The notes under the pieces were generated by a model. It did no database searches, was not told the origin of the DNA, and saw only the letters and a list, made by a program, of their open reading frames with translations. From Gemmatimonadales bacterium (lineage in GTDB: Bacteria; Gemmatimonadota; Gemmatimonadetes; Gemmatimonadales; GWC2-71-9), in the NCBI GenBank assembly GCA_044221045.1, contig JBGAPX010000001.1, positions 56,608 through 120,607 on the forward strand: DNA of 64,000 bases, in the 5' to 3' direction. The translations under genes were made by a program, and so were the position numbers. This document shows, in pieces, positions 28,936 through 62,663 of the stretch. Numbering within the stretch: position 1 is the stretch's first letter; each line of letters opens with the position of its first letter.

Positions 28936-28950
28936 GCACCCTCCCTTCAC

Positions 28951-29054
28951 GCCGAGCCGCCGAGCCGCCGAGTCGCCGAGCCGCCGAGCCGCCGAGTCGC
29001 CGAGTCGCCGAGTCGCCGAGCCGCCGAGCCGCCGAGCCGCCGAGCCGCCGAGCT
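28951..29054. repeat. octamer array (GCCGAGYC)x13
   Basis: 13 contiguous 8-nt units (9x GCCGAGCC/GCCGAGCT, 4x GCCGAGTC); last unit ends on the TGA of the matrixin gene; followed by one CCGCCCAA unit. Confidence 0.95.
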
Positions 29055-42758: not shown

Positions 42759-43158
42759 CAGGCTGGACGTGATGGTCGCGGGCCGGGCAACCGGTCCCGA
42801 GGAAAGTCCGAGCTCCACCGGGTAGACTGCCAGGTAACGCCTGGGCGCCGCAAGGCGACGGACAGGGCCACAGAAAACAGACCGCCTCCGGCGCGAGCCG
42901 GGGGTAAGGGTGAAACGGTGGGGTAAGAGCCCACCGCCCCGAGCGCAAGCAAGGGGGCACGGCAACCCCCAGTCGGTGCAAGGCCAAATAAGCGGCGAGG
43001 TGTGACCCACACCGCCCATGGGACGACGGGGCTTGCCCCGGGATTCCAAGCCGCGGGTAGGCTGCTCGAGGCGGCCGGCGACGGCCGTCCCAGATAGATG
43101 ACCATCTCCCGGAGGGGCAACCCCGAGGGAAACAGAACTCGGCTTACGGTCTGGCCTG
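42759..43158 (+). ncRNA. rnpB: RNase P RNA, bacterial class A
   Basis: Universal motifs GAGGAAAGTCCGAGCTCCAC, ACAGAAAACAGACCGCC, GGTAAGGGTGAAACGGTGGGGTAAGAGCCCACC, ACAGAACTCGGCTTAC; P1 pairing CAGGCTGGACG / CGGTCTGGCCTG defines the ends (+-5 nt). Confidence 0.93.
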
Positions 43159-43252
43159 GGGCCGGGGATCCGCGGGGGAGCGCGCGTCGTGCGCCGCCCG
43201 GGGCGCCCCGGCCCTCCCGTCCCCCGGGCGCCCGGGGTAGGTTCCTGAGTCA

Positions 43253-47293: not shown

Positions 47294-47429
47294 GGGGGAG
47301 AAGGAGAGAAAAGGGAAACGGGAAGAGGGAAACGGGAAGGGGGAACTGCTCGCCCAATCGCCCAGCCGCCGAGCCGCCGAGCCGCCGAGCCGCCGAGCCG
47401 CCGAGCCGCCGAGCCGCCGAGCCGCCTAC
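47294..47429. repeat. composite array: ~8 heptamers (GGGAARN) then 10 octamers (TCGCCCAA TCGCCCAG (CCGCCGAG)x7 CCGCCTAC)
   Basis: Fills the whole gap between arginase stop (TAG 47426-47428, inside last unit) and the ATG of the downstream membrane protein (47293). Confidence 0.95.
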
Positions 47430-48348: not shown

Positions 48349-48438
48349 GGCGGCTCGGCGGCTCGGCGACTCGGCGGCTCGGACTCCGGTCGGCCGGTCG
48401 GGAAGGCCGAGCCGACCAGCCGTCCAGCCGCCGAGCCG
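48349..48438. repeat. inverted octamer arrays (GGCGGCTC x4-5 versus CCGAGCCG-type) forming an imperfect hairpin
   Basis: GGCGGCTC GGCGGCTC GGCGACTC GGCGGCTC GGACTCCG ... GGCCGAGCCGACCAGCCGTCCAGCCGCCGAGCCG; ends 5 nt before dnaN stop. Confidence 0.85.
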
Positions 48439-48443
48439 TCAGA

Positions 48444-49559
48444 TCAGTCCACCAACCGGAGCGGCATGACCAGCGTCAGGTACGCCGCCGGGTCGTTCCA
48501 GCCCACCGGTTCGCAGGTGGCGGCGCGCTCGGGGCCCTTGAAGGTCATGCGCACCTCGTCGGTGGGCATGTACTTCATGATCTCGAGCAGGTAGGCGGCG
48601 TTGGGGCCGATCTCCATGGTCTCGCCGTCGTAGCTCACCGACAGCTCCTCCTGGGCCTCGCCCAGGTCCGGGGTCTGCACCGAGAGCTTGCAGGAGCCGT
48701 TGGCGAGTCCCATGCGGATGCGGTGGGTCTGGTCGCTGGCGACGATGCTCATGCGCTTGAGGGCCGAGGCGAGGGCCGCCTTGTCGGCGGTCATCATCTT
48801 GTCGTTCTCGCGCGGGATCACCTGCTCGTAGTTCGGGTACGGCCCCTCGATGAGCCGGGTGTAGACCTGGGTGGTCGCAGAGCGGAAGCCGAGGTGGTTC
48901 TCGCTCTTGGCGATCTCGAGCTCGTCCTGGTCGCCGAAGAGGCGGCGGATCTGGTCCAGCGCCTTGGGCGGGATGATGAGGTCGGCCTGGCCCTTGCCGA
49001 TGCCGGCGGTGACGGGCACGTCCATCCGGGCCAGCCGGTGGCCGTTGGTGGCCACCATGCGCATCCGCTCGGGCCGGAGCTCCCACAGCACGCCGTTCAG
49101 GATGGGGCGGCTCTCCTCCGTGCTGGCGGCGAACGCGACGTGGGAGACCAGCTTCTGGACGTCGCCGGCCTTGGAGCGCCAGGCGGCGTCGAACTTGACG
49201 GCGGGGAAGGCCGGGAATTCCTCGCGGGGGAGGCCCAGCAGCCGGAACTTGGAGCGGCCGCACTCGATGGTGGCCCGCTGCTCGCCCGAGCTGGTGAGGC
49301 GGATGGCCGCGCTCGGCAGCTCCCGGACGATGTCCGAGAGCTTCTTGGCCGGCAGGGTGATCGCGCCTTCCTGGTCCACGCTGGCCGGCACCGTGGTGCT
49401 GACCGCGATGTCGAGGTCGGTCCCGGAGAGCCGGAGCCCGTCGCCGGTGGCCTCGAGCAGCACGTTCGAGAGCACCGGCAGGGTGGTCTTCGTGGGAATC
49501 GAGGCGGTGACGGCTTGCAGTCCTTCCTGGAACTGCTCCCGCGTGATCGTGAACTTCAT
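48444..49559 (-). CDS. dnaN: DNA polymerase III beta sliding clamp
   Basis: Start MKFTITREQFQEGLQAV inside ORF 48444..49760; 371 aa; ends LVMPLRLVD. Confidence 0.95.
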   Translation of the reverse strand: MKFTITREQFQEGLQAVTASIPTKTTLPVLSNVLLEATGDGLRLSGTDLDIAVSTTVPASVDQEGAITLPAKKLSDIVRELPSAAIRLTSSGEQRATIECGRSKFRLLGLPREEFPAFPAVKFDAAWRSKAGDVQKLVSHVAFAASTEESRPILNGVLWELRPERMRMVATNGHRLARMDVPVTAGIGKGQADLIIPPKALDQIRRLFGDQDELEIAKSENHLGFRSATTQVYTRLIEGPYPNYEQVIPRENDKMMTADKAALASALKRMSIVASDQTHRIRMGLANGSCKLSVQTPDLGEAQEELSVSYDGETMEIGPNAAYLLEIMKYMPTDEVRMTFKGPERAATCEPVGWNDPAAYLTLVMPLRLVD

Positions 49560-49774
49560 CCCGTTCCTCGGCGTGCAAGAAGTACTACTGTTTCCCTGTT
49601 TACTTAAACTAGTAGTAACAGTAGGCGGTGGGGATATGTCGACACCGGCCCCAACTCCGCGCCGCGTCACCGGTTGCCCGGTTCCGGCCCTGTGGACCGG
49701 CTGTGGAGGGCGGGGACGGCATCCGGAGAAGTGCCCAGTTGTCACAGCAACATCTCCCATGTCCGCGTGGACAA
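49560..49774. other. candidate oriC segment (dnaA-dnaN intergenic): AT-rich element plus DnaA-box-like 9-mers
   Basis: AT-rich 49576-49624 (aagaagtactactgtttccctgtttacttaaactagtagtaacagtag, with CTACTGTT/AACAGTAG inverted repeat); TGTGGACCG 49691, TGTGGAG 49702, TTGTCACAG 49739, CGTGGACAA 49766. Confidence 0.5.
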
Positions 49775-51133
49775 CTACTGTGCAATCAGTTCCGTGCGCG
49801 CGCTTTCGATGCGGTCGCGGAAGCTGCGGTCGCGGGCCATCTGGCGCTGGACCTTGTCCACGCTGTGGATCACCGTGGAGTGGTCGCGCCCGCCGAGGCC
49901 TGCCCGATCTCGATCAGCTGCATCTGCAGGATGTCGCGGGCCAGGACATAACGATCCTGGCGCGGCACCAGGAGTCTTGATCGGGCCTTGAGGCGCAACT
50001 GCTCGAGGTCACCCCCAGCGCCAGGCCACGACGTCCTGGATCGGTCGATGGTGGGAAAAGTCGCAGGGTGGCCGCGAGGTCGTCCCAGGCGGATCTTGTC
50101 GGCCAGGGCCTCGCAGGCCAGCTCGATCGGCCTCGCGGTGTGAGCAAGCGAAGAGCAGCAGCTTGATGATGCAGCCCTCGGGCTCGGACGTTGGAGCGGA
50201 CGTGCTCGGCGATGAACCGGAGCACGTCGTCCGGGATGGTCATCTCGAGTGGTCCTGCTCCACCAGCTGCCGCGCAGGATGGCGATCCGGTGCTCGAGGT
50301 CGCTGGCCGATGTCGCAAACCCACCATGCCCCACTCGAAGCGGCTCACCAGCCGGGCCTCGGGCCCGGGATCTCGCGCGGGGGGCCGGTCGGAGGTCAGG
50401 ACGATCTGCTTCCCCGCCTCGTACAGGGCGTTGAAGGTGTGGAAGAACTCCTCCTGGGTACCTCGCCCTCGGAAGTGCACGTCGTCCACCCAGGAAGGGT
50501 CGATGTCTGCCGGTAGCGCTTGCTGACTCCCGGCATGGTGCGGCGCGAGATCCCTCGATCCTCATTGATGAACAACCGGCGCTCACGTACAGCACCCAGT
50601 GCCAGGGCTGCGGCGCAGCGCCAATGGCCGTGCGCGATCATGCTGCATCCGGAACAGGTCTTGCCCAGCCCCGGTGGCGCCGTAGATGAACAGGGGTTGT
50701 AGGTCTTGCCCGGGGCCTCGACCGCGGCGTGGGCGGCGCGGCGGCCAACTGGTTCGACTTGCCGATGGCCAGGTCAGGCTGTAGCGCTCGTTGAGCGGCT
50801 GGTTGCTCAGGTTGGACGCCACCAGGCGTAGCCGCCCGACGGGGGCTCGGCGGTTATCCTCCCCTGGGGCCGCCGCTGCCGGTCCTCCTGGACCCGGAAG
50901 GTGACCGTCACGGGCTTCCCCGCCACGGACTCCGCCAGCCGGGAGAGCAGGGCCCCGTGGTTGGTCTCGTTCCACTTGGCCGCGAACTCGTCGGGCACGG
51001 CGATGACCAGCCGGTCGTCCTCGAGGGCGACGGCTTCGGTGGGCTCGAGCCAGGCGCGCACGACCTTGTCGGGTAGCTTCTGCCCGGCTTCGTCGAGGAT
51101 GCGCTTCCAGATGTCTTTGGCGGACTGCTGCAT
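49775..51133 (-). pseudogene. dnaA: chromosomal replication initiator DnaA, reading frame broken at least 10 times
   Basis: Recognisable DnaA blocks are scattered over all three minus frames: MQQSAKDIWKRILDE.. (ORF 50807..51133), LNERY / PLFIYGATG (50583..50975), GTQEEFFHTFNALYEAGKQIVLTSDRPP, ARLVSRFEWGMV (49914..50489), LEHRIAILR, IELACEALADKI (49870..50595), GGRDHSTVIHSVDKVQRQMARDRSFRDRIESARTELIAQ* (short frame ending TAG 49775). Confidence 0.9.
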
Positions 51134-51186
51134 GCCACTCAGGAGAGATGAGGCGTTAGCAAGGGTGGCCGAACGTACGGGCCGGA

Positions 51187-51195
51187 TGTGGAAAA
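51187..51195. promoter_or_regulatory. DnaA-box-like 9-mer TGTGGAAAA (8/9 to TGTGGATAA)
   Basis: Read directly in the divergent dnaA/rpmH intergenic region. Confidence 0.35.
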
Positions 51196-51259
51196 GTCAA
51201 CCTTGACCCGAACGGGGGGTCCTGGCTAGGTTTGCAGGCTCATTTGAGGGGATTTTCCG

Positions 51260-51421
51260 ATGAATCCGTCATACCGTCCGCGCAACAAGCGCCGGGTCGC
51301 GAAGCATGGCTTCCGGGCCCGCATGTCCACCCGCTGGGGCCGCGAGACCCTGTCCCGCCGCCGCAAGAAGGGGCGGAAGCAGCTCGTGGTGAGCATCGGC
51401 TCCAAAGACGGGAGCCGCTGA
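51260..51421 (+). CDS. rpmH: 50S ribosomal protein L34 (53 aa, C-terminally longer than usual)
   Basis: Not in ORF track (<60 aa); translated by hand: [53 protein letters not shown]; canonical HGFRARMST core. Confidence 0.9.
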
Positions 51422-51759
51422 CGCCAGGCGAACGGCGGCCGCGGTCGAGCCGCCTCGCGGGCCGGGCCGAACGGCTCCGGTGCCTCGAGCAGGGTCGCCG
51501 GCGCCGGCAGCGCTTGCTGGAGTTCATCTGGATGGACAACATGGTGGGCCACCCACGGATGGGACTGATCGTTCCGAAGTTCCAGTCCACGGCGGTGGCC
51601 CGCAATCGTTTACGGCGGCGCCTGCAGGAGCTGTGGCGCCGGGAGGTCCAGCCCAGGCAGGGCGGGCGGGACCTCCTGATCCGGGCCCGGAAGGAAGCCT
51701 ACGGCGTGCCGTTCCAGACGCTCAGGACCGAGCTGCTGACATGGGTGGGCGGGCTGTGA
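51418..51759 (+). CDS. rnpA: ribonuclease P protein component; start codon unresolved
   Basis: Frame of ORF 51232..51759; conserved [41 protein letters not shown]; no ATG/GTG/TTG in frame between rpmH and the conserved N-terminus (only CTG at 51418). Confidence 0.7.
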
Positions 51760-52070
51760 TGCTCGGCGGCTCGGCGGCTCGGCGACTCGGCGGCTCGGCG
51801 GATCGGCACCTCTTTCCCCGGCCCACCACGCCCCTCGGCTGGCTGCAGGCGCCGCTCACCTGGCTCAGCATCCTCCTCATCCGTCTCTACCAGCTCGTCA
51901 TCTCCCCGGGCCTCCCCTCGAGCTGCCGCTTTGCGCCCAGCTGTTCGGCGTACACGCTCGAGGCGGTGCAGCGCCACGGTGCCCTCCGGGGCATCTGGCT
52001 CGGCGCCCGCCGGCTCGATCGCGCCATCAGCCATGCTCGAGGCGGCCAGTTCCCTGACCCCGACGCATAG
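51759..52070 (+). CDS. yidD: membrane protein insertion efficiency factor YidD, with octamer array in codons 2-17
   Basis: ATG overlaps rnpA stop (TGATG); LIRLYQLVISPGLPSSCRFAPSCSAYTLEAVQRHGALRG; N-terminal LGGSAARRLGGSADRH is encoded by the array. Confidence 0.75.
   Translation: MLGGSAARRLGGSADRHLFPRPTTPLGWLQAPLTWLSILLIRLYQLVISPGLPSSCRFAPSCSAYTLEAVQRHGALRGIWLGARRLDRAISHARGGQFPDPDA
51761..51808. repeat. octamer array (GCTCGGCG x3, ACTCGGCG, GCTCGGCG, GATCGGCA) inside the yidD 5' end
   Basis: Six contiguous 8-nt units = 48 nt = 16 codons. Confidence 0.9.
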
Positions 52071-52175
52071 GCACTCATGGACCGCCGTGTGATCTGGGCG
52101 ATCGGCCTGATGATGATCATCGCCATCGCCCCCACCTTCTTCCTCAAGCCGCCGGCCAAGCCGGTGGTGTAGAAA

Positions 52176-52238
52176 CCGCCGATTCGGCGGCTCAGGCGGC
52201 TCGGTGACTCGACGGCTCGGCGGCTCGGCGACTCGGCC
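52176..52238. repeat. octamer array (7 degenerate GCTCGGCG-type units) starting with palindrome CCGCCGATTCGGCGG, inside yidC right after the TAG
   Basis: TTCGGCGG CTCAGGCG GCTCGGTG ACTCGACG GCTCGGCG GCTCGGCG ACTCGGCC. Confidence 0.85.
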
Positions 52239-52517
52239 GAAGTGCTTGGACGCGACAGCGCGTTCGGGCCCGTCGGCACCGTCGAGGCCGACGGCGCCAT
52301 CCGCCCCGCGGCCGACACGGTCGTGGTCTCGAGCCCGCTCTACCGCTACGAGTTGAGCACCCGCGGCGGCGCCCTGGTGCAGGCCACGCTGGCCCGGTAC
52401 AACGCCCTCGACCCTCGGGAAGGGCAAGCCGGTCGAGCTGCTGACCGCCCCGATCCACCAGCTCGCGATCAACGTGGGGAACGACACCCTGTCGCTGGCC
52501 GAGTGGGACTTCACGGT

Positions 52518-52549
52518 GCTCGGCGGCTCGGCGGCTCGGCGGCTCGAGG
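52518..52549. repeat. octamer array (GCTCGGCG x3, GCTCGAGG) inside the yidC periplasmic domain
   Basis: Encodes VLGGSAARRLEA in the yidC frame. Confidence 0.85.
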
Positions 52550-53780
52550 CGAAGGGGCAGCCCCAGGACCTGGTGCTCACCGGCGGCCGCGGCGGCGCGC
52601 AGGTGGAGCTCACCTACACCTTCCGCCCCGACGACTACCTGATCGGCGTGCGCGGCCGGGTCACCGGCCTCGGGCCGGTGGGCGGGCACCTGCTGATCGA
52701 CATGGGCAGCGGCTTCCGCCAGACCGAGGCCGACAGCGCCGCCAACTACTACGAGTTCGGCCTGGTCACCAAGACCGACGAGTCGAAGCTCACCAAGTTC
52801 TCCTCGCTCAAGCCGCTGGAGCGGCGCACCCTGGAGGGGCCGCTGGAGTGGGCGGCGGTCAAGGCCAAGTACTTCGTGGCCGCGGTGCTGGTGGTGGATT
52901 CCGGCGCGGCCCCGCTCTCCGGCGCCACGGCACAGGCGCTGCCGGCCGCCAAGAAGCCGACCCACGCCGCGGTGACCTTCGGGATGCCCATCGCCGCCGC
53001 CGGCGACTTCCAGTACCGCTTCTACCTGGGCCCGATGGAGTACCCGCGGCTCAAGGCGATCGGTCACGGCTTCTACGACATCAATCCCTACGGCTGGCCC
53101 GGCTTCCGCACCATGATCCGCCCGATCGCGGTGGGCGCGCGGTGGCTGCTGGTGTCCATGCACGAGAACCTGGGCCTGGCCTACGGCATCGTGCTGGTGC
53201 TGTTCGGGGTGCTGATCCGGATCGTGCTGTGGCCGCTCAACCAGAAGGGCATGCGCGCCAGCATCCGGATGCAGGGCCTGCAGCCCGAGATGCAGCGGAT
53301 CCAGGACAAGTACAAGGAAGACCCCGCGCGGATGCAGAAGGAAGTGATGGAGCTGTACAAGCGCGAGGGCGTGAACCCCTTCAGCGGCTGCTGGCCGCTG
53401 CTGCTGCCCTGGCCCATCCTGCTGGCGCTGTTCTTCGTGCTGTCGAACTCGATCGAGCTGCGCGGGCAGGCGTTCCTGTGGCTCCCCGACCTGGCGCTCA
53501 AGGACCCGCTCTACGTCATCCCGGTGGTGATGGGGCTGTCGATGTTCGCGGTGAACAAGGTCGGCATGATGGGCATGCCGCCCAACCCGCAGTCGAAGAT
53601 GATGCTGTACTTCCTGCCGGTGATGATGACGGTGATGTTCCTGAACTTCGCGTCGGGACTCAACCTGTACTACGCGGTGCAGAACCTCGTCAGCATCCCG
53701 CAGCAGTGGTACCTGGCCAAGGAGCGGCTCAAGGCCAAGCCGCCGGAAGTCGGCACGAAGAAGGGCTGACGGCGCGCCGA

Positions 53781-53863
53781 CGGGAAACGGAAAACGGGAA
53801 GCGGGAAGGCACGGAGCTCACCTCGCCTTCCCGCTTCCCTTTTCCCGTTTCCCGGTAGTTTTT
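53781..53863 (+). terminator. intrinsic terminator built from inverted heptamer arrays: 30-nt arms (28/30 paired) + T5
   Basis: CGGGAAACGGAAAACGGGAAGCGGGAAGGC (53781-53810), 14-nt loop, GCCTTCCCGCTTCCCTTTTCCCGTTTCCCG (53825-53854), then GTAGTTTTT; 11 nt after yidC stop. Confidence 0.7.
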
Positions 53864-53878
53864 CCTTCTCCTACGACC

Positions 53879-55188
53879 ATGCTCTCGGACCCCATCGTCG
53901 CCCTCGCCACCCCGCCCGGCCGCTCCGCGCTCGCGGTGATCCGGCTCTCGGGCGCGGGGGCGTTCGGGATCGCGGCGCGGGTCATCCCCGGCTTCCGCGC
54001 CGACCCGCCGCGCACCGCGCATTACGCCGCCTTCCGCGACGCCGCCGGCCAGCTGATCGACCGGGGGATCTACCTGGTGTTCGCCGGCCCGCGCTCCGAG
54101 ACCGGCGAGGACGTGGTGGAGTTCCAGTGCCACGGCGGGCTCGCGGTGCCGGCGCGGCTGGTGGCGGCGATCGAGGCCGCCGGCGCGCGCCCCGCCCACC
54201 CGGGGGAGTTCACCCGCCGCGCGGTGATGCACGGGAAGCTCGACCTGCTCCAGGCCGAGGCGCTGGGCGACCTCATCGATGCCGAGGCGCCGGCGCAGGC
54301 CCGCGCCGCGCTGGTGCAGCTGGAGGGCGGGCTCTCCCGCCGGATCGCGGCGCTCCCCGCGCCGGGCTGGTGGAGCTGCTGGCGCTGCTCGCGTACGACG
54401 TGGACTTCCCCGAGGAAGACGACGGCCCCGTTGCCCGCGACCGGATCGAGGCCGCCCGCGCCACCGTGCTCGCCGGGGTGGAGCAGCTGCTCGGCACCGC
54501 GCCGCTCGCCGACCGGGTGCGCCGCGGCGCGCTGGTGGTGCTGGCCGGCCCGCCCAACGCCGGCAAGTCGTCGCTGTTCAACGCCCTGCTCGGGAGCGAA
54601 CGGGCGCTGGTCACCGAGATCCCCGGCACCACCCGCGACGCCATCGAGGCCCACGTGGAGTTCCACGGCTGGCCCATCCGCCTGGTGGATACCGCCGGCC
54701 TCGGCGAGGCCACCGACCGGCTCGACGCGCTGGGCCAGGCGATGGGCCGGCGATTCGTGGAGGGGGCGGATCTGGTGGTGGAGCTGGGCGGCCTGGCGGT
54801 TCGGCGGCTCGGCGGTTCGGAGGCTGCACCGCTGCTGGTCCGCGCCAAGGCCGACCTGGGTGGCGAGGGGGAGGGGCTCCCGGTGTCGGCGGTGACGGGG
54901 CAGGGGCTCGCGGAGCTCAAGCGCGCCATCGTCGCGCGGCTGTTCCAGTCCGGCGCCGGCTTCGCCGACCTGGAGCCGGCGCTCACCCGCGAGCGGCACC
55001 GGGTGGCGCTCAGTACCGCGCGCGACGCCCTCGCGGCCACCGCCACCCAACTCGGCCCCCGTGGCGAGGCGGTGCTCGCCGCACATCACGTGCAGGAGGC
55101 GGTGCGCGCACTCGATGGCCTGGTGGGAGTGGTGGATGTGGAGGAGGTGCTGGACCGGGTGTTTGCGAGTTTTTGCGTGGGGAAGTAG
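53879..55188 (+). pseudogene. mnmE: tRNA modification GTPase MnmE, single frameshift in the C4 run at 54355-54358 (probable sequence error)
   Basis: N-terminal half in ORF 53879..54895 (MLSDPIVALATPPGRSALAVIRLSG, GKLDLLQAEALGDLI), C-terminal half in ORF 54127..55188 (GPPNAGKSSLFNALLG, DTAGL, ..FCVGK*); total 1310 nt = 437 codons minus 1 nt. Confidence 0.9.
54787..54826. repeat. octamer array (GGCGGCCT GGCGGTTC GGCGGCTC GGCGGTTC GGAGGCTG) inside the mnmE G-domain
   Basis: Encodes ELGGLAVRRLGGSEA between the ADLVV and LLVRAKADL strands. Confidence 0.85.
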
Positions 55189-55198
55189 GCCCGACGGA

Positions 55199-55323
55199 CG
55201 GGAAGCGGGAAACGGGAAGCGGGAAGCGGAACCGCCGATCCCCGCGGCTTTCGCCGGCGCCCGGGAACCCGAGCCGTCTTGCTGAGTAGCGCCCTCTTCC
55301 CGCTTCCCGCTTCCCTTTTCCCG
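55199..55323. repeat. inverted heptamer arrays separated by a 61-nt spacer
   Basis: CGGGAAG CGGGAAA CGGGAAG CGGGAAG CGGAACC (55199-55233) ... CTCTTCC CGCTTCC CGCTTCC CTTTTCC CG (55294-55323); 10 nt after mnmE stop, 9 nt before the next ATG. Confidence 0.9.
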
Positions 55324-55332
55324 TTGGTGCCC

Positions 55333-56124
55333 ATGCGCCTCTCCAGCCTCCACGTCTACCCTGTTAAGTCCTGCGCCGGCCTGAGTCCCTCCAGCTGGCC
55401 GGTAGACGCCCTCGGCTTCCAGTACGACCGCCGCTGGATGGTGACCACGCCGCGAGGGCAGTTCCTGACGCAGCGCGAGGTGCCGGCGCTGGCGCTGGTG
55501 ACGCCGGAGATCCGGCCGCCGCACCTGGTCCTGCGCTTCCCCGGCCTGCCCGACCTGGTGACGGCGCTGGCCCCCATGGGCGGCCGGCCCGTGGCCACGC
55601 AGGTCTGGGACGACCCGCTCCGCGTGGTGGCGCCCGACCACAAGGCCGATGCCTGGTTCTCCGACGTGGTGGAGCAGGAGGCGGTGCTGGCCTGGTTCCC
55701 CGAGACGGTGGTCCGCCCGGTGAACACCGACTGGGCCCCGCGCGGCGGCCGCACCGGCTTCGCCGATGGGTTTCCCTTCCTGCTGGCGGGCGAGGCCTCG
55801 CTGGCCGACCTCAACGCCCGGCTGGCCACGCCGCTCCCCATGAACCGCTTCCGGCCCAACCTGGTGGTGTCAGGCAGCGCGCCCTTCGCCGAGGATGGCT
55901 GGCGCGAGGTCGTGATCGGCGGCATCGCGATGGAGGTGGTGAAGCCCTGCGCCCGCTGCGTGATCACCACCACCGACCAGGCCACCGGCCGGCGCATGGG
56001 CGACGAGCCGCTGCGCACCCTGGCCACGTTCCGACGCCAGGACCAGAAGGTGATGTTCGGGCAGAACGTGGTGCACTATGGGACGGGAACGCTTCAGGTG
56101 GGCGATGAGGTGAGCGTCGGGTAG
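55333..56124 (+). CDS. MOSC domain-containing protein (YcbX-like)
   Basis: Start MRLSSLHVYPVKSCAGL inside ORF 55279..56124; RFRPNLVV, VKPCARCVITTTDQATG. Confidence 0.85.
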   Translation: MRLSSLHVYPVKSCAGLSPSSWPVDALGFQYDRRWMVTTPRGQFLTQREVPALALVTPEIRPPHLVLRFPGLPDLVTALAPMGGRPVATQVWDDPLRVVAPDHKADAWFSDVVEQEAVLAWFPETVVRPVNTDWAPRGGRTGFADGFPFLLAGEASLADLNARLATPLPMNRFRPNLVVSGSAPFAEDGWREVVIGGIAMEVVKPCARCVITTTDQATGRRMGDEPLRTLATFRRQDQKVMFGQNVVHYGTGTLQVGDEVSVG

Positions 56125-56130
56125 ATTGCC

Positions 56131-56218
56131 GGGAAGCGGGAAGCGGGAAGCGGGAAGCGGGAAGCGGGAAGCGGGAAGCGGGAGGCGGCGGACTCCGCTT
56201 CCCGTTTCCCGTTTCCCG
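56131..56218. repeat. (GGGAAGC)x7 + GGGAGGC, short loop, then (GCTTCCC GTTTCCC GTTTCCC)
   Basis: Seven perfect units 56131-56179; partial complementary arm 56194-56218; 6 nt after the MOSC stop. Confidence 0.95.
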
Positions 56219-56253
56219 TCTAGTCTTCACCCAATCTCACCCCAGCGACATCC

Positions 56254-57051
56254 ATGACCCCCACCCTCCTCGGCATCCCGTGGGATGCGAGCTCGTCGTT
56301 CCAGCGCGGGCCGGCGCAGGCGCCGGCTGCCGTCCGCGCCGCCCTCCGCTCCGATTCCAGCAACGGCTGGAACGAGGAGCTGGTGGACGCCCGCGCGCTG
56401 CTCCAGGACGCCGGCGACCTGGCGCTCCCCGCCGACGGCCCGCTGCCGCTCGAGGCGATCACCGCCGGCGCCCGCGCGCTGCTCGACGCCGGCGCGACGC
56501 CGGTCTTCCTGGGCGGCGACCATTCGGTGACCTGGCCGCTGGTCCGCGCGGTACGGCCCCGCCACGAGCGGCTCACGATCTTCCACCTCGACGCCCACCC
56601 CGACCTCTACGACGAACTCGACGGCCGGCGCGACAGTCACGCCTGCCCCTTCGCGCGGATCCTCGAGGAGGGCGGCGCCAATCACCTGGTGCAGGCGGGG
56701 ATCCGCACCCTCAACGCGCACCAGCGCGACCAGGCCCGCCGCTTCGGGGTGGAGATGGTGCAGATGCGCCAGGGACTCGAGGCGATGGTCACCGCCGCCC
56801 GCCGCCTGGCCGGGCCGGTCTACCTGTCCGTCGACCTCGACGCGCTCGACCCGGCCTTCGTCCCCGGGATCAGTCACCCCGAACCGGGCGGGCTCAGCAC
56901 CCGCGAGCTGCTCACGATCCTGCAGGCGATCCCCAAGGGCCGGATCGTGGCGGCCGACGTGGTGGAACTCAACCCCGCCAACGACCTGCGCGACCTCACG
57001 GCCAGGGTGGCGGCGAAGGTGGTTGGGGAGATCGTGGGGAGGTTGGGGTAG
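56254..57051 (+). CDS. speB: agmatinase-like ureohydrolase
   Basis: 265 aa; GGDHSVTWP, HLDAHPDLY, SVDLDALDPAFVPGISHPEPGGL. Confidence 0.85.
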   Translation: MTPTLLGIPWDASSSFQRGPAQAPAAVRAALRSDSSNGWNEELVDARALLQDAGDLALPADGPLPLEAITAGARALLDAGATPVFLGGDHSVTWPLVRAVRPRHERLTIFHLDAHPDLYDELDGRRDSHACPFARILEEGGANHLVQAGIRTLNAHQRDQARRFGVEMVQMRQGLEAMVTAARRLAGPVYLSVDLDALDPAFVPGISHPEPGGLSTRELLTILQAIPKGRIVAADVVELNPANDLRDLTARVAAKVVGEIVGRLG

Positions 57052-57058
57052 GAACAGC

Positions 57059-57323
57059 GGGAAGCGGGAAGCGGGAAGCGGGAAGCGGGAAGCGGGAAAC
57101 GGGAAACGGGAAACGGGAAACGGGAAACGGGAAGGGGGAAAGGGGGAAAGGGAAGCGGGAAGGGGAACCCGCGAGAGCCAGGGGAGTACATCAAACCGCC
57201 CAACCGCCACTCCCTCGCGCCCGGGTCGCCGCTACGCGGCTCCCGAAGGGCGCTCGGTCGCCGCCCTACCGCCCTACCGCCCTACCGCCTTACCGCCTTA
57301 CCGCCCTACCGCCTACCGCCCCT
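57059..57323. repeat. largest composite element: (GGGAAGC)5 (GGGAAAC)5 + ~5 degenerate heptamers, conserved core, (CCGCCCTA/CCGCCTTA)x8
   Basis: Heptamers 57059-57170; core ..CCGCCCAACCGCCACTCCCTCGCGCCCGGGTCGCCGCTACGCGGCTCCCGAAGGGCGCTCGGTCGCCG 57195-57260; octamers 57261-57323; fills the gap between convergent speB and CDGSH genes. Confidence 0.95.
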
Positions 57324-57510
57324 CGTTATGCGACCCATCGCAGAACGGCTTGGACTTGGAGCGGCCGCAGCCGCAGAGCTTGACGGTGCCGGGCTTCTTG
57401 GGAGTGGGCTGGGGGATTTCGCGGCCGTCGCCATCGACGAGGACGACCGGCGTTTCGATGAGGATGCTGCCGGAGGGCTTGATGGTGATGCGGACCGGCG
57501 TGTCGCTCAT
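57313..57510 (-). CDS. CDGSH iron-sulfur domain protein (65 aa)
   Basis: MSDTPVRITIKPSGSILIE..CGCGRSKSKPFCDGSH; last codons and TAG stop lie within the octamer array; ATGA overlap with upstream gene. Confidence 0.85.
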   Translation of the reverse strand: MSDTPVRITIKPSGSILIETPVVLVDGDGREIPQPTPKKPGTVKLCGCGRSKSKPFCDGSHNEGR

Positions 57511-58451
57511 GCCGTCTGGACGCCCCGGGCCTGGTCTTCGGCGGCCTGGAACTCCTGGGCGCTGGCGCGCAGCGCCTGCGCGATGCCCCGCTCCTGCACC
57601 AGGGCCTCGGACATCCGGTGGCCGAGGTAGTAGCCGGAGCGCTCGGGGAGAACGCGGCCGGCGACGAGGCGGGCGGAGGGGCTCATGCCGCCGCTCAGGT
57701 AGCGGAGCCGGAGCCCGATGCCGCGGCCCTCGAGCTCGGGCTCGACGACGCGGCGGAGCAGGGACTCGAGCTCGCGCAGGCGGCGGTACTGGCGGCGGGG
57801 GTAGCCGAAGTAATTGGCCGGGTCGAGGCCGGGCGCCACCGCCTGGGCGGCGTGGACGGCCAGGCCCTCGTTGAGCAGCAGCTCGCGCAGGGTGGCGCGG
57901 CTGCCGGTGACCCAGTAGTCGTAGTAGCCGCCCTGGTCGGCCACGATGCGCTTGAGCTCGCTCTGGCTCTGGGGCGAGGTGTACCGGACGCAGTGCGCCA
58001 GCTCGTGCGCCACCCACAGCGGGATGAGCTCCGGCGGCAGGCCCATGCCGTAGGTCTCGGGGTTGGCGCGCCCGGTGAAGTGCTCCAGGCAGATGAACGC
58101 CACGCCCCGCCCGCCCACCACCAGCTCGCCCGCGTTGGCCGCGCCCATCCCGACCATCAGGTACACGTCCGTGGGCCGGTCGACGCCCAGCAGGTCCTCG
58201 GACTGCGCGATCGCGTCCTCGACGATGCCCGCGACGTCCGAGCTCTCGAGCAGTTCGTAGAGGTCGGAGCGGTCGGCGTTGAGCGCGTGGGTCATCACCG
58301 CGCGCGCCTGCTGGCTCTCGAGGTCCAGCACGTAGTTGTGCCAGTACGCGGAGAGGACGGCGCGATGTGCGTTCAGGTACTGCTCGAACGCGGCTTCGCG
58401 GTCTGTGGCTTTCAGGACGGAGAGGAATTCGGGGACGAGATTGATCAGCAC
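57507..58451 (-). CDS. predicted zinc-dependent protease (DUF2268-like, HExxH)
   Basis: GTG start (VLINLVPEFLSVL) inside ORF 57507..59978; WVAHELAHCVRY; upstream part of the long ORF is Arg/Gly/Pro-rich artefact. Confidence 0.65.
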   Translation of the reverse strand: MLINLVPEFLSVLKATDREAAFEQYLNAHRAVLSAYWHNYVLDLESQQARAVMTHALNADRSDLYELLESSDVAGIVEDAIAQSEDLLGVDRPTDVYLMVGMGAANAGELVVGGRGVAFICLEHFTGRANPETYGMGLPPELIPLWVAHELAHCVRYTSPQSQSELKRIVADQGGYYDYWVTGSRATLRELLLNEGLAVHAAQAVAPGLDPANYFGYPRRQYRRLRELESLLRRVVEPELEGRGIGLRLRYLSGGMSPSARLVAGRVLPERSGYYLGHRMSEALVQERGIAQALRASAQEFQAAEDQARGVQTA

Positions 58452-58562
58452 GTGCGCAAATATCGGCGGTTCGCGTGGAGGCGCAAGGTCTCTTCTCCCT
58501 GCTGGAATTGTCCGGGCGTCTTGACAGTGGCGGACCGAGTGTGAGACAGCGCACAGATCGAA

Positions 58563-58693
58563 GGCGGTTGGGCGGTTGGGCGGTTGGGCGGTTGGGCGGT
58601 TGGGCGATTGGGCGACTGGGCGACTGGACGGCGCAGATGCCTTGGCCTCGCCTTCCCGCTTCCCTCTTCCCTTTTCCCTTTTCCCTCTTCCCG
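58563..58693. repeat. composite array: (GGCGGTTG)x5 GGCGATTG (GGCGACTG)x2, spacer, (NNCTTCC)x6
   Basis: Octamers 58563-58629, heptamers 58650-58693; ends flush with the TGA (58694) of the BTAD regulator gene. Confidence 0.95.
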
Positions 58694-61600
58694 TCAGTTC
58701 CCCCCCAGCTGCGCGACCCGGATCCTCGCCCGCTCCACCCGCGCCCGGTAGATCGGGTCGGCATCGCTCCAGTTCTTGAGCACCTGGCGGTAGCGGGTGA
58801 CGGCGCTGTCGCGCTCGCCGGCGGCGTCCCAGGCCAGGGCGCCGAGCTCGAGGAGCTCGGTGGTGGTGGCGTAGGTCTGGGAGGCGTCGAGTCCGCCGCG
58901 GCGGGCGGCGTCGGCCCAGTAGGCGGCCTCGCGGGGGCGGTTGAGGCGCAGCAGGACCTTGGCCAGCTCGATGTTGGTGCGGGTGTAGCCGCTGGTCGGG
59001 CTCCAGATGGCCTGACGGAATTCGGCCGCGGCCTGCTCCAGCTGGCCCCGCGCCGCGTAGAGCAGGCCGCGCACGTGATGGTGGGCCCGGCCGTCGCGGC
59101 CGTAGCTGTTCCGCTGGCCCCAGACCTCGATGCTGTCGGCGATGCGTGGCAGGGGCGCGGTGTCGCCGGCGGCGGCGAGGGCGGTGCTCCGGAGCAGCTG
59201 GGTCCACACCAGGTTGCGGGCCACCTGCGAGCGGGTGGTGTCCCGGGGGCTGCGCGAGACGGAATCGAACGTCGCCGCCGCGCGGCGGAAGTCGCCCAGC
59301 TCGTACCAGGCCTGCGCCTCGAAGAGGGCGCTGTAGGGCGCGGCGCCTCGGGGGAAGGGATCCTCGAGGCCCCGGAGCCGGTGGGCCCACTCCAGGCCCT
59401 CGCGCGGCTTCCCCTGCATGCGATGGCTGATGCTCAGCCACTTGTAGCCCTCGCCGGGGAGCTTGCCGTGCGCCAGCTGGGTGTAGTAGCTGTCCGCCGC
59501 GGCGAAGTCGCCCATGCGGAGCCACACCTGCACCCGGAAGCCGTCGCGCACCAGGCCGGGGTCGCGGGCGATGACGACCTGGTCGGCGGTGAGCGCCTCG
59601 CGGTACCGGCCCGCGAGCATGAGCACCCAGCTGACCTGCCCCGCCGGCCCCGCCGCCTGCGGCTGGGCCCGCTGCCACTCCTCCGCGGTGCGGAGCGCGG
59701 CCGGCAGCGAGTCCATGTAGGCGTAGGTGCTGACGAGCATGAGGTAGGCGATGCAGGCATGGCAGCGCACCGGCGGGCCATCCTTGCGCTCGCTGGCCCG
59801 GAGCGAGAGCGAGTCCATCCGGATGACCTTCCGCAGCGGCTCGACCGCGCCCAGGAAGTCCCCGCTCGAGTTCCGCGCCGCCGCGAGCCAGGTGTAGCCC
59901 TCCGGCTCGGTGGGGTAGCGCACGGTGAGGCTCTCCGCCACCGCGATCCGGTTGGGCGCGTCCACCGCCGCGCTCCACCCCGCCAGGATGGTGAGCCGCT
60001 CCCGTTCCGAGGCCCGCGCCGAGAGCCGCACCGCCCGCTCCAGGCCGCGGATGAGGTTGACGTCGTTGAAGCTCCCCTGCGTCGTCGCCAGCCAGTAGGC
60101 GGCCATCGCGAAGGTGGAGTCCTCCTGCAAGGCCTGCTCCATCAGGCGCGCGCCCGCCTCGCCGTCGCCGCGGAAGAGGGCGCGCAGCCCTTCCTCATAG
60201 AACCGGTACGCCACCAGGGAGCGGGTGGTGACCTCGGCGATGCTGCCATTGGCGGCGCTGTCGATCCCCTCGGTGATGCTGCGCCGCGCCTCCTCCACCA
60301 GCCCGAAGAGGTCGCCCGCCTCCGCCGAGTAGCTCTCGGTCACGCCGCCGGTGGCGAGGTTGGTGCGGGTGAGGTCGAGCCGCAGCCGGCCGTCGGGCCG
60401 GCGGTAGAGGGCGCCGTCGATCAGCTCGGTGGCACCGGCGGCGCGCGCGGCGCGCACGGCGCTCGCCGCGGAATCGCCGGGGCCGCCCGATTGCGCCATG
60501 AGCTCGTACATCCGCGCGGTGCTGATGACCTGCAGCGCGCGGCTGCGCGCCAGGTCGGTGGCGAGCATGTCGCCGAGCGGGCGCGCCAGGCCCTCGCCGC
60601 TCCGGGTGTAGTCCTTGATCATCCCCACCGCCACCACCGGCGCCGCGGCGCCCGCGCCGAGCTCGTCCCGGAACACCCGCACCCGCATCACGCCCGCCAC
60701 CAGCAGGCCGAGGACGAGGCCGATGGCGATGCCGAGGCGGGTGGAGGTTCGGCGGAGAAACGGCTTGCGGGGCGGCAGGGCCGCCAGCGGCTCGGCGGCT
60801 CGGCGACTCGGCGGCTCGACCTGCGGACGGGGGCGGGCGTACTCGTCGGTGTAGCCGGAGATGAGCTTGCGGCCCGAGGGCTCCGGCACCGGCGCCGGCC
60901 GGGTGACGGCGGGGGTGCCGGGGATGGTGGAGATGGGGACGGAGGCGAGCGGCTCGGCGGCTCGGCGACTCGGCGGCTCGGCGGCTTGGCGGCTCGGCGG
61001 CTCGACCGTTTCCCGCACTCTCTCGCCCCCGGGTCGCGCTGACGCGCTCCCGAAGGGGGCTCGGTCGCCGCTTCCCGCTTCCCGCAGTTGATCTGCCAGC
61101 CGCTTCACCTCCGGGTCCGGCTCCAGCTCCAGTTCCTGCCGCAGCAGCATCTCGTACACCCGGTAGTGCTGCAGGGCGGCGGCGCGGTCGCCGACGGCGG
61201 CGAGGGCCTGCATCAGGCCGAGTGCGCTCCGGGCGTTGAGCGGGTCGGCGTTGGCGAGGAGGCGCCAGTAGCCGAGGGCGGTGCGGGGATCGCCGGCGGA
61301 GGAGGTGTCGCGGGCCAGCCGCTCCACGGCGGCGATGTAGTCGTGCGCCAGCGCGGCGCGTTCGCTCTCGGCCCAGCGCTCGAACTCGGGGGCCTCGTCG
61401 AGGTAGATGCCGTCGAGGAAGGGGCCCTTGTAGAGCGCGACCGCGTCGGCGAGGCGCTGCTCCTTGAGCGCCTGGCGGAAGCGGGCCAGGTCGCTGTCGC
61501 AGAGGTCGGGGTTGAGCCGGAGGTCGGTGGTGCCGAGCACCAGGTCCTCGGCGCCCAGGTCGCGGCGCAGGGCGTAGACCGTCTGGGCGAGGTTCTTCCG

Positions 61601-61792
61601 GGCCCGCTCCAGGTCGGACTCGGGCCACAGGAGGCTGAGCAGCTTCTCGCGCGAGAGGCCGCGCTCGCCGGCGGCGGCGAGGAGGGCCAGCAGCGCCAGG
61701 CGGCGGCGCTGGGCGCCGGCGCCCGCGGCCGGGGCGCCGCCCCGCTGGACGCCCAGGCCGCCGAAGGTGACGAGGAGGAGCGGTGGGCTCAT
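58694..61792 (-). CDS. BTAD/SARP-like winged-helix transcriptional regulator with TM segment and TolB-N-like/TPR sensor region (1032 aa)
   Basis: N-terminus RRLALLALLAAAGERGLSREKLLSLLWPE..; BTAD block ALYKGPFLDGIYLDEAPEFERWAESERAAL..ALQHYRVYEMLLRQELELEPD; TM LGIAIGLVLGLLVAGV; TPR-like C-terminus. Confidence 0.85.
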   Translation of the reverse strand: MSPPLLLVTFGGLGVQRGGAPAAGAGAQRRRLALLALLAAAGERGLSREKLLSLLWPESDLERARKNLAQTVYALRRDLGAEDLVLGTTDLRLNPDLCDSDLARFRQALKEQRLADAVALYKGPFLDGIYLDEAPEFERWAESERAALAHDYIAAVERLARDTSSAGDPRTALGYWRLLANADPLNARSALGLMQALAAVGDRAAALQHYRVYEMLLRQELELEPDPEVKRLADQLREAGSGDRAPFGSASARPGGERVRETVEPPSRQAAEPPSRRAAEPLASVPISTIPGTPAVTRPAPVPEPSGRKLISGYTDEYARPRPQVEPPSRRAAEPLAALPPRKPFLRRTSTRLGIAIGLVLGLLVAGVMRVRVFRDELGAGAAAPVVAVGMIKDYTRSGEGLARPLGDMLATDLARSRALQVISTARMYELMAQSGGPGDSAASAVRAARAAGATELIDGALYRRPDGRLRLDLTRTNLATGGVTESYSAEAGDLFGLVEEARRSITEGIDSAANGSIAEVTTRSLVAYRFYEEGLRALFRGDGEAGARLMEQALQEDSTFAMAAYWLATTQGSFNDVNLIRGLERAVRLSARASERERLTILAGWSAAVDAPNRIAVAESLTVRYPTEPEGYTWLAAARNSSGDFLGAVEPLRKVIRMDSLSLRASERKDGPPVRCHACIAYLMLVSTYAYMDSLPAALRTAEEWQRAQPQAAGPAGQVSWVLMLAGRYREALTADQVVIARDPGLVRDGFRVQVWLRMGDFAAADSYYTQLAHGKLPGEGYKWLSISHRMQGKPREGLEWAHRLRGLEDPFPRGAAPYSALFEAQAWYELGDFRRAAATFDSVSRSPRDTTRSQVARNLVWTQLLRSTALAAAGDTAPLPRIADSIEVWGQRNSYGRDGRAHHHVRGLLYAARGQLEQAAAEFRQAIWSPTSGYTRTNIELAKVLLRLNRPREAAYWADAARRGGLDASQTYATTTELLELGALAWDAAGERDSAVTRYRQVLKNWSDADPIYRARVERARIRVAQLGGN
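60787..60818. repeat. octamer array (GCGGCTCG x2, GCGACTCG, GCGGCTCG) inside the BTAD regulator linker
   Basis: Encodes VEPPSRRAAEPLAAL on the minus strand. Confidence 0.85.
60949..61084. repeat. composite element inside the BTAD regulator CDS: (GCGGCTCG)x7, conserved core, (CTTCCCG)x2
   Basis: Core ACCGTTTCCCGCACTCTCTCGCCCCCGGGTCGCGCTGACGCGCTCCCGAAGGGGGCTCGGTCGCCG 61005-61070; translated as EAGSGDRAPFGSASARPGGERVRETVEPPSRQAAEPPSRRAAEPLA. Confidence 0.9.
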
Positions 61793-62445
61793 GCGGCGCC
61801 GGCCAGCGCCCGCCGGGCGCGCTCGAGGTTCCGCCGGGCGGCGGCCTCGAAGCGGGCCCGGAACGGCGCCGTGCTATAGATGAAAGGGCGGGAGAGGAAC
61901 CGCTCCAGCACCGCGTCGCGGCCGGCGCGGAAATCCGGCGCCGGCACCCCGGCGTATTCGGCCCGGATCTGCCGCTCGTACTCATCGTAGCGCGCCGGCA
62001 CCGCGCCGAGGATGGCGAGGTCGATGTCCACCAGGAGCGCCTCCGCCGGGGTCTCGGGGGGCAGGTCGTGCCGGGTGGCGAGGATCAGCCGCTCGATCCG
62101 GCGCACGATGTCGGGTGCCGCGCCGGCTCCACGCAACACCTCAGAGGCCCACGTCGCGCTGGCCTGCTCGTTGTCGGAGCGACGGGTGTCGTAGACCGCA
62201 TCGTGGAACCAGAGCGCCACCGCCACCTCCCCGCCTGACGTTCCCGCCGCCGCCGCCAGCTCCCCCGCCTCTTCGAGCCGCTCGAAACACTCCCCCAGGT
62301 GCTGGAGGGAGTGATAGGCGCGGTCGGGCGCACGGTACGCCGCGATCACCTGGTCCCTGACGGCGGGCGCGGGGGCCGGGAGGCCGAGGGCGGCCCAACT
62401 GCGGTCCCATCGGGACGCCGCGTCGAAAGGCTTGCCGGGCAACAC
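61789..62445 (-). CDS. HD-superfamily predicted metal-dependent phosphohydrolase (COG4339-like)
   Basis: 218 aa; YHSLQHLGECF, ALWFHDAVYD, LVDIDLAILG, IRAEYAGVP; ATGA overlap with the BTAD gene start. Confidence 0.7.
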   Translation of the reverse strand: MLPGKPFDAASRWDRSWAALGLPAPAPAVRDQVIAAYRAPDRAYHSLQHLGECFERLEEAGELAAAAGTSGGEVAVALWFHDAVYDTRRSDNEQASATWASEVLRGAGAAPDIVRRIERLILATRHDLPPETPAEALLVDIDLAILGAVPARYDEYERQIRAEYAGVPAPDFRAGRDAVLERFLSRPFIYSTAPFRARFEAAARRNLERARRALAGAA

Positions 62446-62452
62446 GTTGCGT

Positions 62453-62507
62453 CAGGTGATCGGCAGGTGATCGCAGGGTGAAGGGGAATTCATGGGCAGG
62501 TGAACGC
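62453..62507. promoter_or_regulatory. helical-turn-phased direct repeats CAGGTGATCGG / CAGGTGATCG / CAGGGTGAAGG ... CAGGTGAACGC
   Basis: Starts at 62453, 62464, 62474 and 62497; directly upstream of the HD/BTAD operon start (62445). Confidence 0.4.
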
Positions 62508-62543
62508 CGGGCCTATTGTAGCCCGCGTAGCAGATGGGAGCAA

Positions 62544-62663
62544 GCGGCGGCTCGGCGGCTCGGCGGCTCGGCGGTTCGGGGGTTCGGGGGTTCGGGGGTG
62601 CGGCGGTGCGGTCTCGAACCGCCCAACCGCCTAACCGCCCAACCGCCGAACCGCCCAACCGCC
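62544..62663. repeat. inverted octamer arrays: (TCGGCGGC/TCGGGGGT/GCGGCGGT)x9 facing (GAACCGCC/CAACCGCC/TAACCGCC)x6
   Basis: GGCGGTTC-type units are the reverse complement of GAACCGCC units, giving a long imperfect hairpin; 36 nt upstream of a lipoprotein gene with AAAGGAGA RBS. Confidence 0.9.

Follow-up and report, generated by a model that had tools for sequence, protein, structure and literature searches.

The window analysed here is a stretch of 64,000 nucleotides from a Gemmatimonadales bacterium (GenBank assembly GCA_044221045.1, contig JBGAPX010000001.1, positions 56,608 to 120,607 of the forward strand) with a G+C content of 71.5%. It carries tandem arrays of an 8-nt unit, GGCGGCTC and its variants, within the reading frames of conserved genes: one array in yidD, two in yidC, one in mnmE and two in the gene of a regulator. 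The arrays and their hosts are listed below, where TRF stands for Tandem Repeats Finder, TM1 for the first transmembrane helix of YidC and P1 for its periplasmic domain.

51759: end of rnpA
51759 to 52070, plus strand: yidD coding sequence (Pfam PF01809)
51761 to 51808, plus strand: yidD array, GCTCGGCG repeated about 6 times, codons 2-17 (TRF 51761-51807, 5.9 copies)
52077 to 53769, plus strand: yidC (Pfam PF14849/PF02096)
52181 to 52238, plus strand: yidC linker array between TM1 and P1, about 7 units with a 24-nt super-period (TRF 52184-52237, 6.6 copies)
52518 to 52549, plus strand: yidC P1 array, perfect 3.6 units, peptide VLGGSAARRLEA (TRF 52518-52546, 100% match)
53879 to 55188, plus strand: mnmE (Pfam PF10396/PF12631/PF01926)
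54787 to 54826, plus strand: mnmE array, GGCGGCTC/GGCGGTTC units, peptide ELGGLAVRRLGGSEA (TRF 54795-54820, 3.2 copies)
58694 to 61792, minus strand: coding sequence of a Trans_reg_C/BTAD (SARP) regulator, 1032 aa
60787 to 60818, read antisense by the minus-strand coding sequence: regulator array 1, 4.0 copies, EPPSRRAAEPL
60949 to 61004, in the same minus-strand regulator linker: regulator array 2, 7.0 copies, EPPSRQAAEPPSRRAAEPL

A preliminary description, made by a model from the letters of the sequence alone, had placed octamer arrays at five sites in these genes. TRF reports period-8 arrays of the GGCGGCTC family at every one of them; with the intergenic arrays included, its period-8 arrays have 3.2-13 copies and 80-100% match. 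The unit is tandemly iterated far beyond chance: a probe of two units, allowing at most two mismatches, has 50 matches in the window against 1.19 expected and a maximum of 4 in 100 shuffles. The unit has the general form GGCG-R-Y-T-N and contains stop codons in none of the six frames. Three units amount to 24 nt and are translated into an 8-residue periodic peptide rich in Ala, Gly, Ser, Arg and Leu, or, from the opposite strand, in Glu, Pro, Ser, Arg and Ala.

Reading frames and assembly quality

The closest homologues of YidC and MnmE are all proteins of Gemmatimonadales metagenome-assembled genomes (MAGs), and the loci compared with the window cover a range of distances. L001, a megahit contig from the European Nucleotide Archive (ENA), is 97.5-99% identical to the window and served as the reference for its indel errors; L084, L085 and L086 are megahit contigs of about 96-97.5% identity, L004 is ~92% and the NCBI MAGs L087 and L089 are ~91% identical, and L002/L003 are two independent assemblies of ~84% identity.

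Alignment of the window with L001 and five other assemblies, both pairwise and multiple, revealed many indel errors in it, which break dnaA, yidD, yidC and mnmE relative to the conspecific short-read contigs. About 40 indels distinguish dnaA (49733-50823) from its counterpart in L001, and errors at 52022-52045 scramble the C-terminal Cys-His motif at the 3' end of yidD. In yidC an extra TA at 52170-52171 makes an in-frame TAG (52170-52172) directly before the linker array, an extra A at 52194, within the array, restores the frame, and 2 nt are deleted at 52411 relative to L001; in mnmE an additional CC at 54355 causes a frameshift. A public MnmE fragment of 272 aa (P0121) is 100% identical to the window, which points to an annotation of the deposited genome that includes this frameshift and hence a truncated MnmE.

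The yidD, yidC and mnmE reading frames are intact in L001, L084, L085, L086, L087, L089, L004 and L002/L003 and contain the arrays in phase, either as such or in degenerate form, and the yidC P1 and mnmE arrays share the frame of the conserved protein downstream of them. Therefore, the arrays are neither assembly artefacts nor located outside of the true frames, and the earlier claim that they are carried in frame in yidD, yidC (twice), mnmE and the regulator was correct. The 8-residue periodicity of the peptides likewise stands, with a correction in the yidC linker: half of the peptide quoted there was an indel artefact, the TAG at 52170-52172 having been skipped. The reading 'KPPIRRLRRLG' arose because of the TA added at 52170 and the A added at 52194; the true linker peptide is TAADSAARRLGDSTARRLGDSAE (protein P0001), and the peptide at the array site is DSAARRLGDSTARRLGDSAE.

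The MnmE loop

The mnmE array lies in the G domain, in the loop between strand beta4 (ADLVVE) and the G4 motif (xKADL), and replaces helix alpha3, which is expected at this position of a Ras-like fold. In the AlphaFold2 (AF2) model the loop, residues 302-318, joins beta4 (298-302) to beta5 (317-321), and the predicted local distance difference test score (pLDDT) is below 50 at residues 305-313; the two AF2 models, of YidC and MnmE, are of only moderate quality (mean pLDDT values 59.5 and 70.7). In distant Gemmatimonadales the spacing between DTAG and xKADL is constant at 62 residues and includes an 'AGRPLGEDE...' helix region. In the clade of the window the loop is hypervariable (56-79 residues) and holds octamer arrays of differing units in at least nine loci. 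The G4 motif itself reads [A/S/T]KADL, not the canonical NKxD, throughout this clade (54838-54855 in the window).

Among 29 full-length, near-identical (94-97%) MnmE proteins, 28 are 435 aa long and one (P0150) has 443 aa with one GGSAARRL added. The DNA encoding the 443-aa protein, in L084, has exactly 24 extra nucleotides in the array, TTGGGCGGCTCGGCGGCTCGGCGA, which correspond to three units and one GGSAARRL period. The amino-acid diversity of the loop is 0.25 compared to 0.027 for the rest of the protein, about 10 times as high; its alleles include LGGLAVRRLGGSEAAPLL, LGGSAARRLGGSASGRLA, LGGSATRRPGGSASGWLA and DDGSAGGRLGDSAIGRL, at least five occur within one species, and the units and peptides differ between sister species.

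The segment 54700-54900 of the window is that of L087/L089, which are ~91% identical overall, and its flanks match the L001-type genomes (97.5-99%). The mnmE gene of the window is thus a recombination mosaic. Hypermutation had been considered as the cause of the differences between the mnmE arrays of the window and L001 and was rejected because the segment is identical to that of L087/L089.

YidC, YidD and the regulator

The AF2 model of YidC has no secondary structure in residues 23-60, which contain the linker array, and the pLDDT is below 50 there. Two 24-nt periods are present in the species of the window, a degenerate array in L004, an array 9 nt shorter in L087 and a single period in L002 and L005; L007, L008, L006 and the outgroups have no array at this site. 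The distant L060 carries an independent array in the yidC linker, in the opposite orientation.

The P1 array forms a strand-turn-strand element, the turn of a beta-hairpin at residues 146-158 of the periplasmic domain, according to the model. Outgroups have PSARRL at this place, encoded by TCG GCT CGG CGG CTG, a stretch that already amounts to about 1.5 units; around this native seed the array of the ingroup has grown by 12 nt. Perfect copies are present in the window, L085, L002 and L005, and copies with 5-9 substitutions in L001, L084/L086, L087, L089 and L004; nine close relatives have six alleles of the same length. The immediate flanks are identical between the perfect alleles of the window and L085 and those of L001, L084 and L086, which carry 5-7 substitutions.

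In yidD the ATG at 51759 overlaps the TGA of rnpA (TGATG), and no other in-frame ATG, GTG or TTG precedes the Pfam YidD domain, which begins at residue 35. The array occupies the variable N-terminal tail before the conserved LFPRPR...YQ core. Its sequence is the same in the window, L001, L084 and L085; L086, L087 and L004 have degenerate versions of similar length (3 nt longer in L004), and in L002 unrelated sequence takes its place. The natural absence of the linker array from L007/L008 and of the yidD array from L002 argues that both arrays are dispensable.

Both regulator arrays follow the BTAD domain (residues 107-237) and precede the transmembrane helix, and the minus strand reads EPPSRRAA through them. 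Array 1 consists of four GCGGCTCG units in the window and of four GCGATTGG units at the same place and of the same length in L004, all four units being changed at the same three positions. Array 2 is partly made of GGCGGTTG units in L004 and of other octamer-like units in L087/L089. When homologues were sought with the N-terminal half of the regulator, BTAD paralogues dominated the results and no conspecific orthologue was among them.

The coding arrays are thus confined to permissive segments: the YidD tail, the YidC linker, the P1 hairpin, the MnmE loop and the interdomain linker of the regulator. The preliminary description had read the repeats as peptide insertions and raised the questions of whether they are lineage-specific and where they fall on YidC and MnmE structures; on the AF2 models they map to the disordered linker, the P1 hairpin turn and the beta4-beta5 loop of MnmE. 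They are also lineage-specific, since they are not conserved in distant Gemmatimonadales, where the 'AGRPLGEDE...' helix of MnmE, the PSARRL of P1 and unrelated YidD tails stand in their place; the term insertion is nevertheless too simple for a P1 array grown from a native seed and for an MnmE site that is a hypervariable loop. As to the further claim that the hosts are essential genes, in E. coli this holds only for yidC; yidD and mnmE have housekeeping roles but are not essential in that organism.

Seven-residue periodic peptides were seen in other Gemmatimonadales, namely QQSTANR/QPSAADS... in the yidC linker of L058 and SHQPSAV/SHQPSAP in the mnmE loop of L014. These suggest that heptamer arrays, too, may be carried in frame, as 21-nt repeats.

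Length changes of coding and intergenic arrays

The indels that distinguish the short-read assemblies L001, L085 and L086 from one another are all intergenic, and those in arrays are whole units (7, 14, 16, 21 and 44 nt); overall, the intergenic arrays of the window and these three genomes differ by 7, 14, 16, 21, 32 and 44 nt. Copy number thus varies in whole units between close genomes, as in long simple sequence repeats (LSSR), both in the intergenic arrays and in the 24 nt added to mnmE in L084. The length differences of coding arrays among relatives are 3, 9, 24 and 39 nt only. No out-of-frame variant was found in the 29 full-length MnmE proteins or in the independent assemblies (8 at yidD/yidC/mnmE, 4 at the regulator), which are consensus sequences in which rare frame-shifted variants are invisible. 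It had been pointed out that each gain or loss of a single 8-nt unit is a frameshift, and the coding arrays indeed show only differences divisible by three, the natural 24-nt allele included.

Genomic distribution of the arrays

The coding arrays are built from the same octamer as the intergenic arrays of the window, whose copy numbers (13 and 8.5) are not multiples of three. The repeat was therefore rightly called intergenic-type, the same units being found at the first three of the positions listed below.

28950 to 29053, minus strand: 104 nt in 13 units, the longest array of this unit, immediately upstream of the start codon (28935) of a beta-lactamase-family gene
47359 to 47426, minus strand: 8.5 copies of GAGCCGCC, copy number polymorphic
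48349 to 48440: two octamer arrays in inverted orientation downstream of dnaN, long hairpin with a folding energy (dG) of -66 kcal/mol and z -4.5
53780 to 53854, 55199 to 55323 and 56130 to 56219: further intergenic inverted-pair arrays, as at 48349 to 48440
51261 to 51422: rpmH
42759 to 43162, plus strand: RNase P RNA, bacterial class A (Rfam RF00010, 262 bits)

Microsatellites of 7 and 8 nt are generally overrepresented in the clade: from related loci of 1.36 Mb in total, TRF reported 126 period-7 and 138 period-8 arrays compared to 5 arrays each of period 6 and period 10. Most of them, 103 of 120 period-8 and 121 of 122 period-7 arrays, are non-coding, so that only about 15% of the octamer arrays at related loci are coding; these counts are approximate, because the strict coding classifier overlooks arrays close to the start of a gene, as in yidD and the yidC linker, and took the array at 47359 for a coding one. 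A metagenome scan for at least four perfect units matched at least 120 contigs, and of the 64 arrays that could be classified, the strict test calls none coding and a lax one leaves four in doubt, so that at least 60 of the 64 are outside of genes. A predominantly non-coding location is characteristic of LSSR as well. Within the window, the six coding arrays share one orientation and all lie within the 10 kb adjoining dnaA, with none in the other 50 kb.

The unit sequences at orthologous positions differ between lineages, and within a single genome one and the same variant can be found at more than one locus: GGCGATTG-type units occupy four sites in L004, and L007 and L009 carry 'house' heptamer or octamer units of their own. 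The array at 47359 has 4.5 copies in L001 and two more units (16 nt) in L085. At its position L086 (~96% identical) and L004 have TAATCGCC/AACCGCC units and the window has GAGCCGCC, with one AATCGCCC unit kept at the edge; the units inside this array have been replaced, a case of concerted evolution.

On the plus strand the unit reads CGCCGAGC to the left of about 48 kb (8548, 28950, 47359) and GGCGGCTC to the right of it (48349-62611), including both arrays in the minus-strand regulator gene. The genes dnaN, dnaA and rpmH lie at 48.4-51.4 kb, and the GC skew turns positive near 46-48 kb. The polarity of the unit may be linked to replication; there are three or four arrays on the left, the GC skew is noisy and gene orientation is a confounding factor.

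Many intergenic heptamer and octamer arrays form inverted pairs that fold into long, near-perfect hairpins just after stop codons, with dG of -58 to -79 kcal/mol and z of -4.5 to -6.6 relative to shuffled sequences. Their arms differ by whole units between strains, and they look like terminators made of tandem repeats. The hairpin after yidC is followed by a U-run. Other adjoining arrays are G-rich and C-rich without being complementary, namely (AGCGGGA)x16 with (CCGCCCTA)x7.8 at 57056-57321 and (GGCGGTTG)x7.5 with (CTTCCCT)x5.9 at 58563-58692; throughout the intergenic pairs, the G-rich member precedes the other one on the plus strand.

Folding of the coding arrays against shuffled sequences revealed no RNA structure beyond chance (z 0 to +1.2), for which reason an RNA-structure role of these arrays was dropped. 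The only Rfam match in the window is the RNase P RNA, and nothing was matched at the octamer arrays. As the GGCGGCTC unit lacks G-tracts, G-quadruplexes would not be expected either. Mobile repeats of the REP/BIME (repetitive extragenic palindrome/bacterial interspersed mosaic element) or MITE (miniature inverted-repeat transposable element) kind are inserted as blocks, have a palindromic unit or terminal inverted repeats and go with a transposase such as RAYT. The coding arrays are single-armed, with fuzzy ends that are continuous with native codons, as at the P1 seed; among the intergenic arrays there are inverted pairs.

Origin and maintenance of the coding arrays

We consider that the coding arrays are slippage-prone octanucleotide microsatellites filtered by selection for reading frame and permissive location, with the encoded peptides as passengers, and we put the probability of this explanation at roughly 0.7. 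Microsatellites of this kind pervade the lineage, most of them between genes and often as inverted hairpin pairs, and a minority would have arisen or spread within open reading frames. There, the lack of stop codons in all six frames and the 24-nt length of a triple unit would yield a harmless 8-residue periodic peptide. Selection would retain arrays only at disordered or loop segments and only with a net length divisible by three. The arrays would keep evolving through point mutations, turnover of units and homologous recombination among strains, and out-of-frame unit changes would be purged. We infer replication slippage as the mutational engine, and the peptides are probably selectively neutral. 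Part of the apparent hypervariability is due to recombination, as seen in the mnmE segment and the shuffled flank haplotypes around P1.

Several observations weigh against this explanation. Slippage is deduced from assembled sequences; several arrays share one unit across loci; and the recurrence of unit variants at several loci per genome is not explained by simple local slippage. Random seeding would not predict six coding arrays of the same orientation within 10 kb of dnaA. All four units of regulator array 1 differ in parallel between L004 and the window at constant length, which is hard to reconcile with stepwise 8-nt slippage in an open reading frame and hints at gene conversion or at turnover of three units at a time. 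Additionally, the MnmE site has kept an array throughout a family-level clade, perhaps because of some benefit. The regulator change, the recurrent unit variants and the clustering on the dnaA side leave room for gene conversion between loci.

One would argue that the arrays are actively homogenised, be it through template switching or ectopic gene conversion or with the help of a trans-acting factor specific to the unit of the lineage, so that coding arrays are re-perfected from other arrays. Such a process would account for the regulator units altered at the same three positions without a change in length, for the P1 array that is perfect in the window and L085 and substituted in L001, L084 and L086 between identical flanks, for the unit variants that recur within genomes (GGCGATTG-type in L004, and those of L007 and L009) and for the clustering of coding arrays in one orientation. 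However, homologous recombination at strain level is active and can explain most of the allele patterns, as in the mnmE segment and the P1 flanks, composite arrays with variant gradients, such as the one with AATCGCCC at the 47359 edge, look like local mutation plus slippage, and no candidate factor has been identified. We regard this explanation as unlikely. A broader picture, which we offer tentatively as a slim possibility, is that 7-8-nt microsatellites are a continuing source of disordered loops and linkers in core proteins, and that ectopic gene conversion or template switching, possibly oriented by replication around the origin (oriC), homogenises the arrays and overwrites coding sequence with the current unit of the lineage. 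Active overwriting between loci would explain why four units have switched together in the regulator, why the P1 array has become perfect again and why coding arrays of one orientation cluster beside dnaA.

It is considerably less probable that the GGSAARRL and EPPSRRAA peptides are exapted modules, selected as functional flexible or Arg-rich linkers with, for example, membrane or RNA contacts. An array or an array-derived low-complexity loop does occupy the same MnmE site in many species, the YidD tail array persists in degenerate form down to about 91% identity, and the length is about constant at all sites in close relatives. Contrastingly, the amino-acid sequence of the repeat is not conserved among orthologues: the MnmE alleles include LGGLAVRRLGGSEAAPLL and DDGSAGGRLGDSAIGRL, loop diversity is about ten times that of the rest of the protein, model confidence in the array segments is low, and the yidC linker array is missing from L007, L008 and L006 and the yidD array from L002. 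The preliminary description had left open whether the repeats are tolerated or exapted; tolerance is supported by the data, and exaptation is not, in view of the unconserved peptides (0.25 vs 0.027), the wholesale unit switches between relatives and the absence of the linker array from L007/L008.

We find it very improbable that the arrays are phase-variable contingency loci in which gain or loss of units toggles yidD, yidC, mnmE or the regulator. Each single-unit change of an 8-nt repeat would shift the frame, and the yidD array directly follows the start codon, reportedly a classic position for phase variation (Lin and Kussell, as cited in PMC4692102). However, ON/OFF alleles with frame-shifting unit numbers are absent from the consensus assemblies, and the sole length variant among the 29 MnmE proteins is the one with 24 additional nucleotides. 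The hosts YidD, YidC, MnmE and the BTAD regulator are not dispensable surface or host-interaction proteins, and yidC is the essential gene among them in E. coli. Finally, mis-assembly or sequencing error as the source of the arrays or their frames, which the many indel errors of the window, one of them inside the yidC linker array, might suggest, is refuted by identical or homologous arrays with all reading frames intact in megahit (ENA), NCBI MAG and JGI assemblies.

Relation to known repeat systems

Among long simple sequence repeats the arrays are an unusual variant, in that their 8-nt unit is kept in frame within core genes and population evidence points to a quantum of three units. Non-triplet microsatellites are usually deemed incompatible with coding sequence except as on/off switches, and here they are found in yidC, mnmE, yidD and a regulator. 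They provide a natural example of slippage-prone DNA that creates and remodels disordered loops in conserved bacterial proteins, in one case with the ancestral seed still visible, and of purifying selection that quantises the permitted length changes. They also mark insertion-tolerant sites in YidC and MnmE, and octamer arrays can mislead gene callers as well as long-read assemblies. Neither the octamer string nor tandem or octanucleotide repeats of Gemmatimonadetes turned up anything relevant in literature searches; the 'tandem repeat' of a Gemmatirosa genome note concerns an unrelated 53-kb assembly issue.

Frameshift switching mediated by simple sequence repeats is known from contingency loci, e.g. 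of Haemophilus and Neisseria (PMC2651432, PMC11868660). The arrays described here resemble them as non-triplet repeats in open reading frames, near the 5' end in the case of yidD, and differ in that no out-of-frame alleles were seen, the hosts are housekeeping or essential genes and the organism is free-living, from soil or sludge. The tandem repeats of Borg elements are reported to create intrinsically disordered protein regions (bioRxiv 10.1101/2022.05.18.492195). They are similarly fast-evolving repeats in open reading frames that add low-complexity, probably disordered segments; unlike them, our unit is not divisible by three, so that only three-unit steps are viable, the hosts are core housekeeping genes, and there is no evidence of peptide selection.

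Lineage-specific heptamer families include the G-rich GGGNATC of Xanthomonas and Nostoc (PMC4692102) and the short tandemly repeated repetitive (STRR) heptamers of cyanobacteria and TAACTGA of Beggiatoaceae (PMC4679880). The octamer arrays share with the heptamers of Xanthomonas, Nostoc and Beggiatoaceae the short tandem units that are dispersed over the genome and avoid coding DNA; their units and period are different, many of the intergenic arrays are inverted hairpin pairs, and those reports were not focused on in-frame repeats in conserved genes. The closest parallel is found in LSSR with units of 5-11 nt, which, as Mrazek et al. (2007) are summarised in PMC4679880 and PMC4692102 (see also PMC1853098), are known from large GC-rich bacterial genomes and are dominated by heptamers; by the same summaries, those in coding regions usually have units divisible by three. 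As in such repeats, tandem units of 7-8 nt occur here far beyond chance in a high-GC (71.5%) non-pathogen, heptamers and octamers dominate, the arrays are mostly intergenic and strains vary by whole units. Unlike in such repeats, an 8-nt unit is carried in frame in housekeeping genes, where it acts as an effective 24-nt repeat and persists across species.

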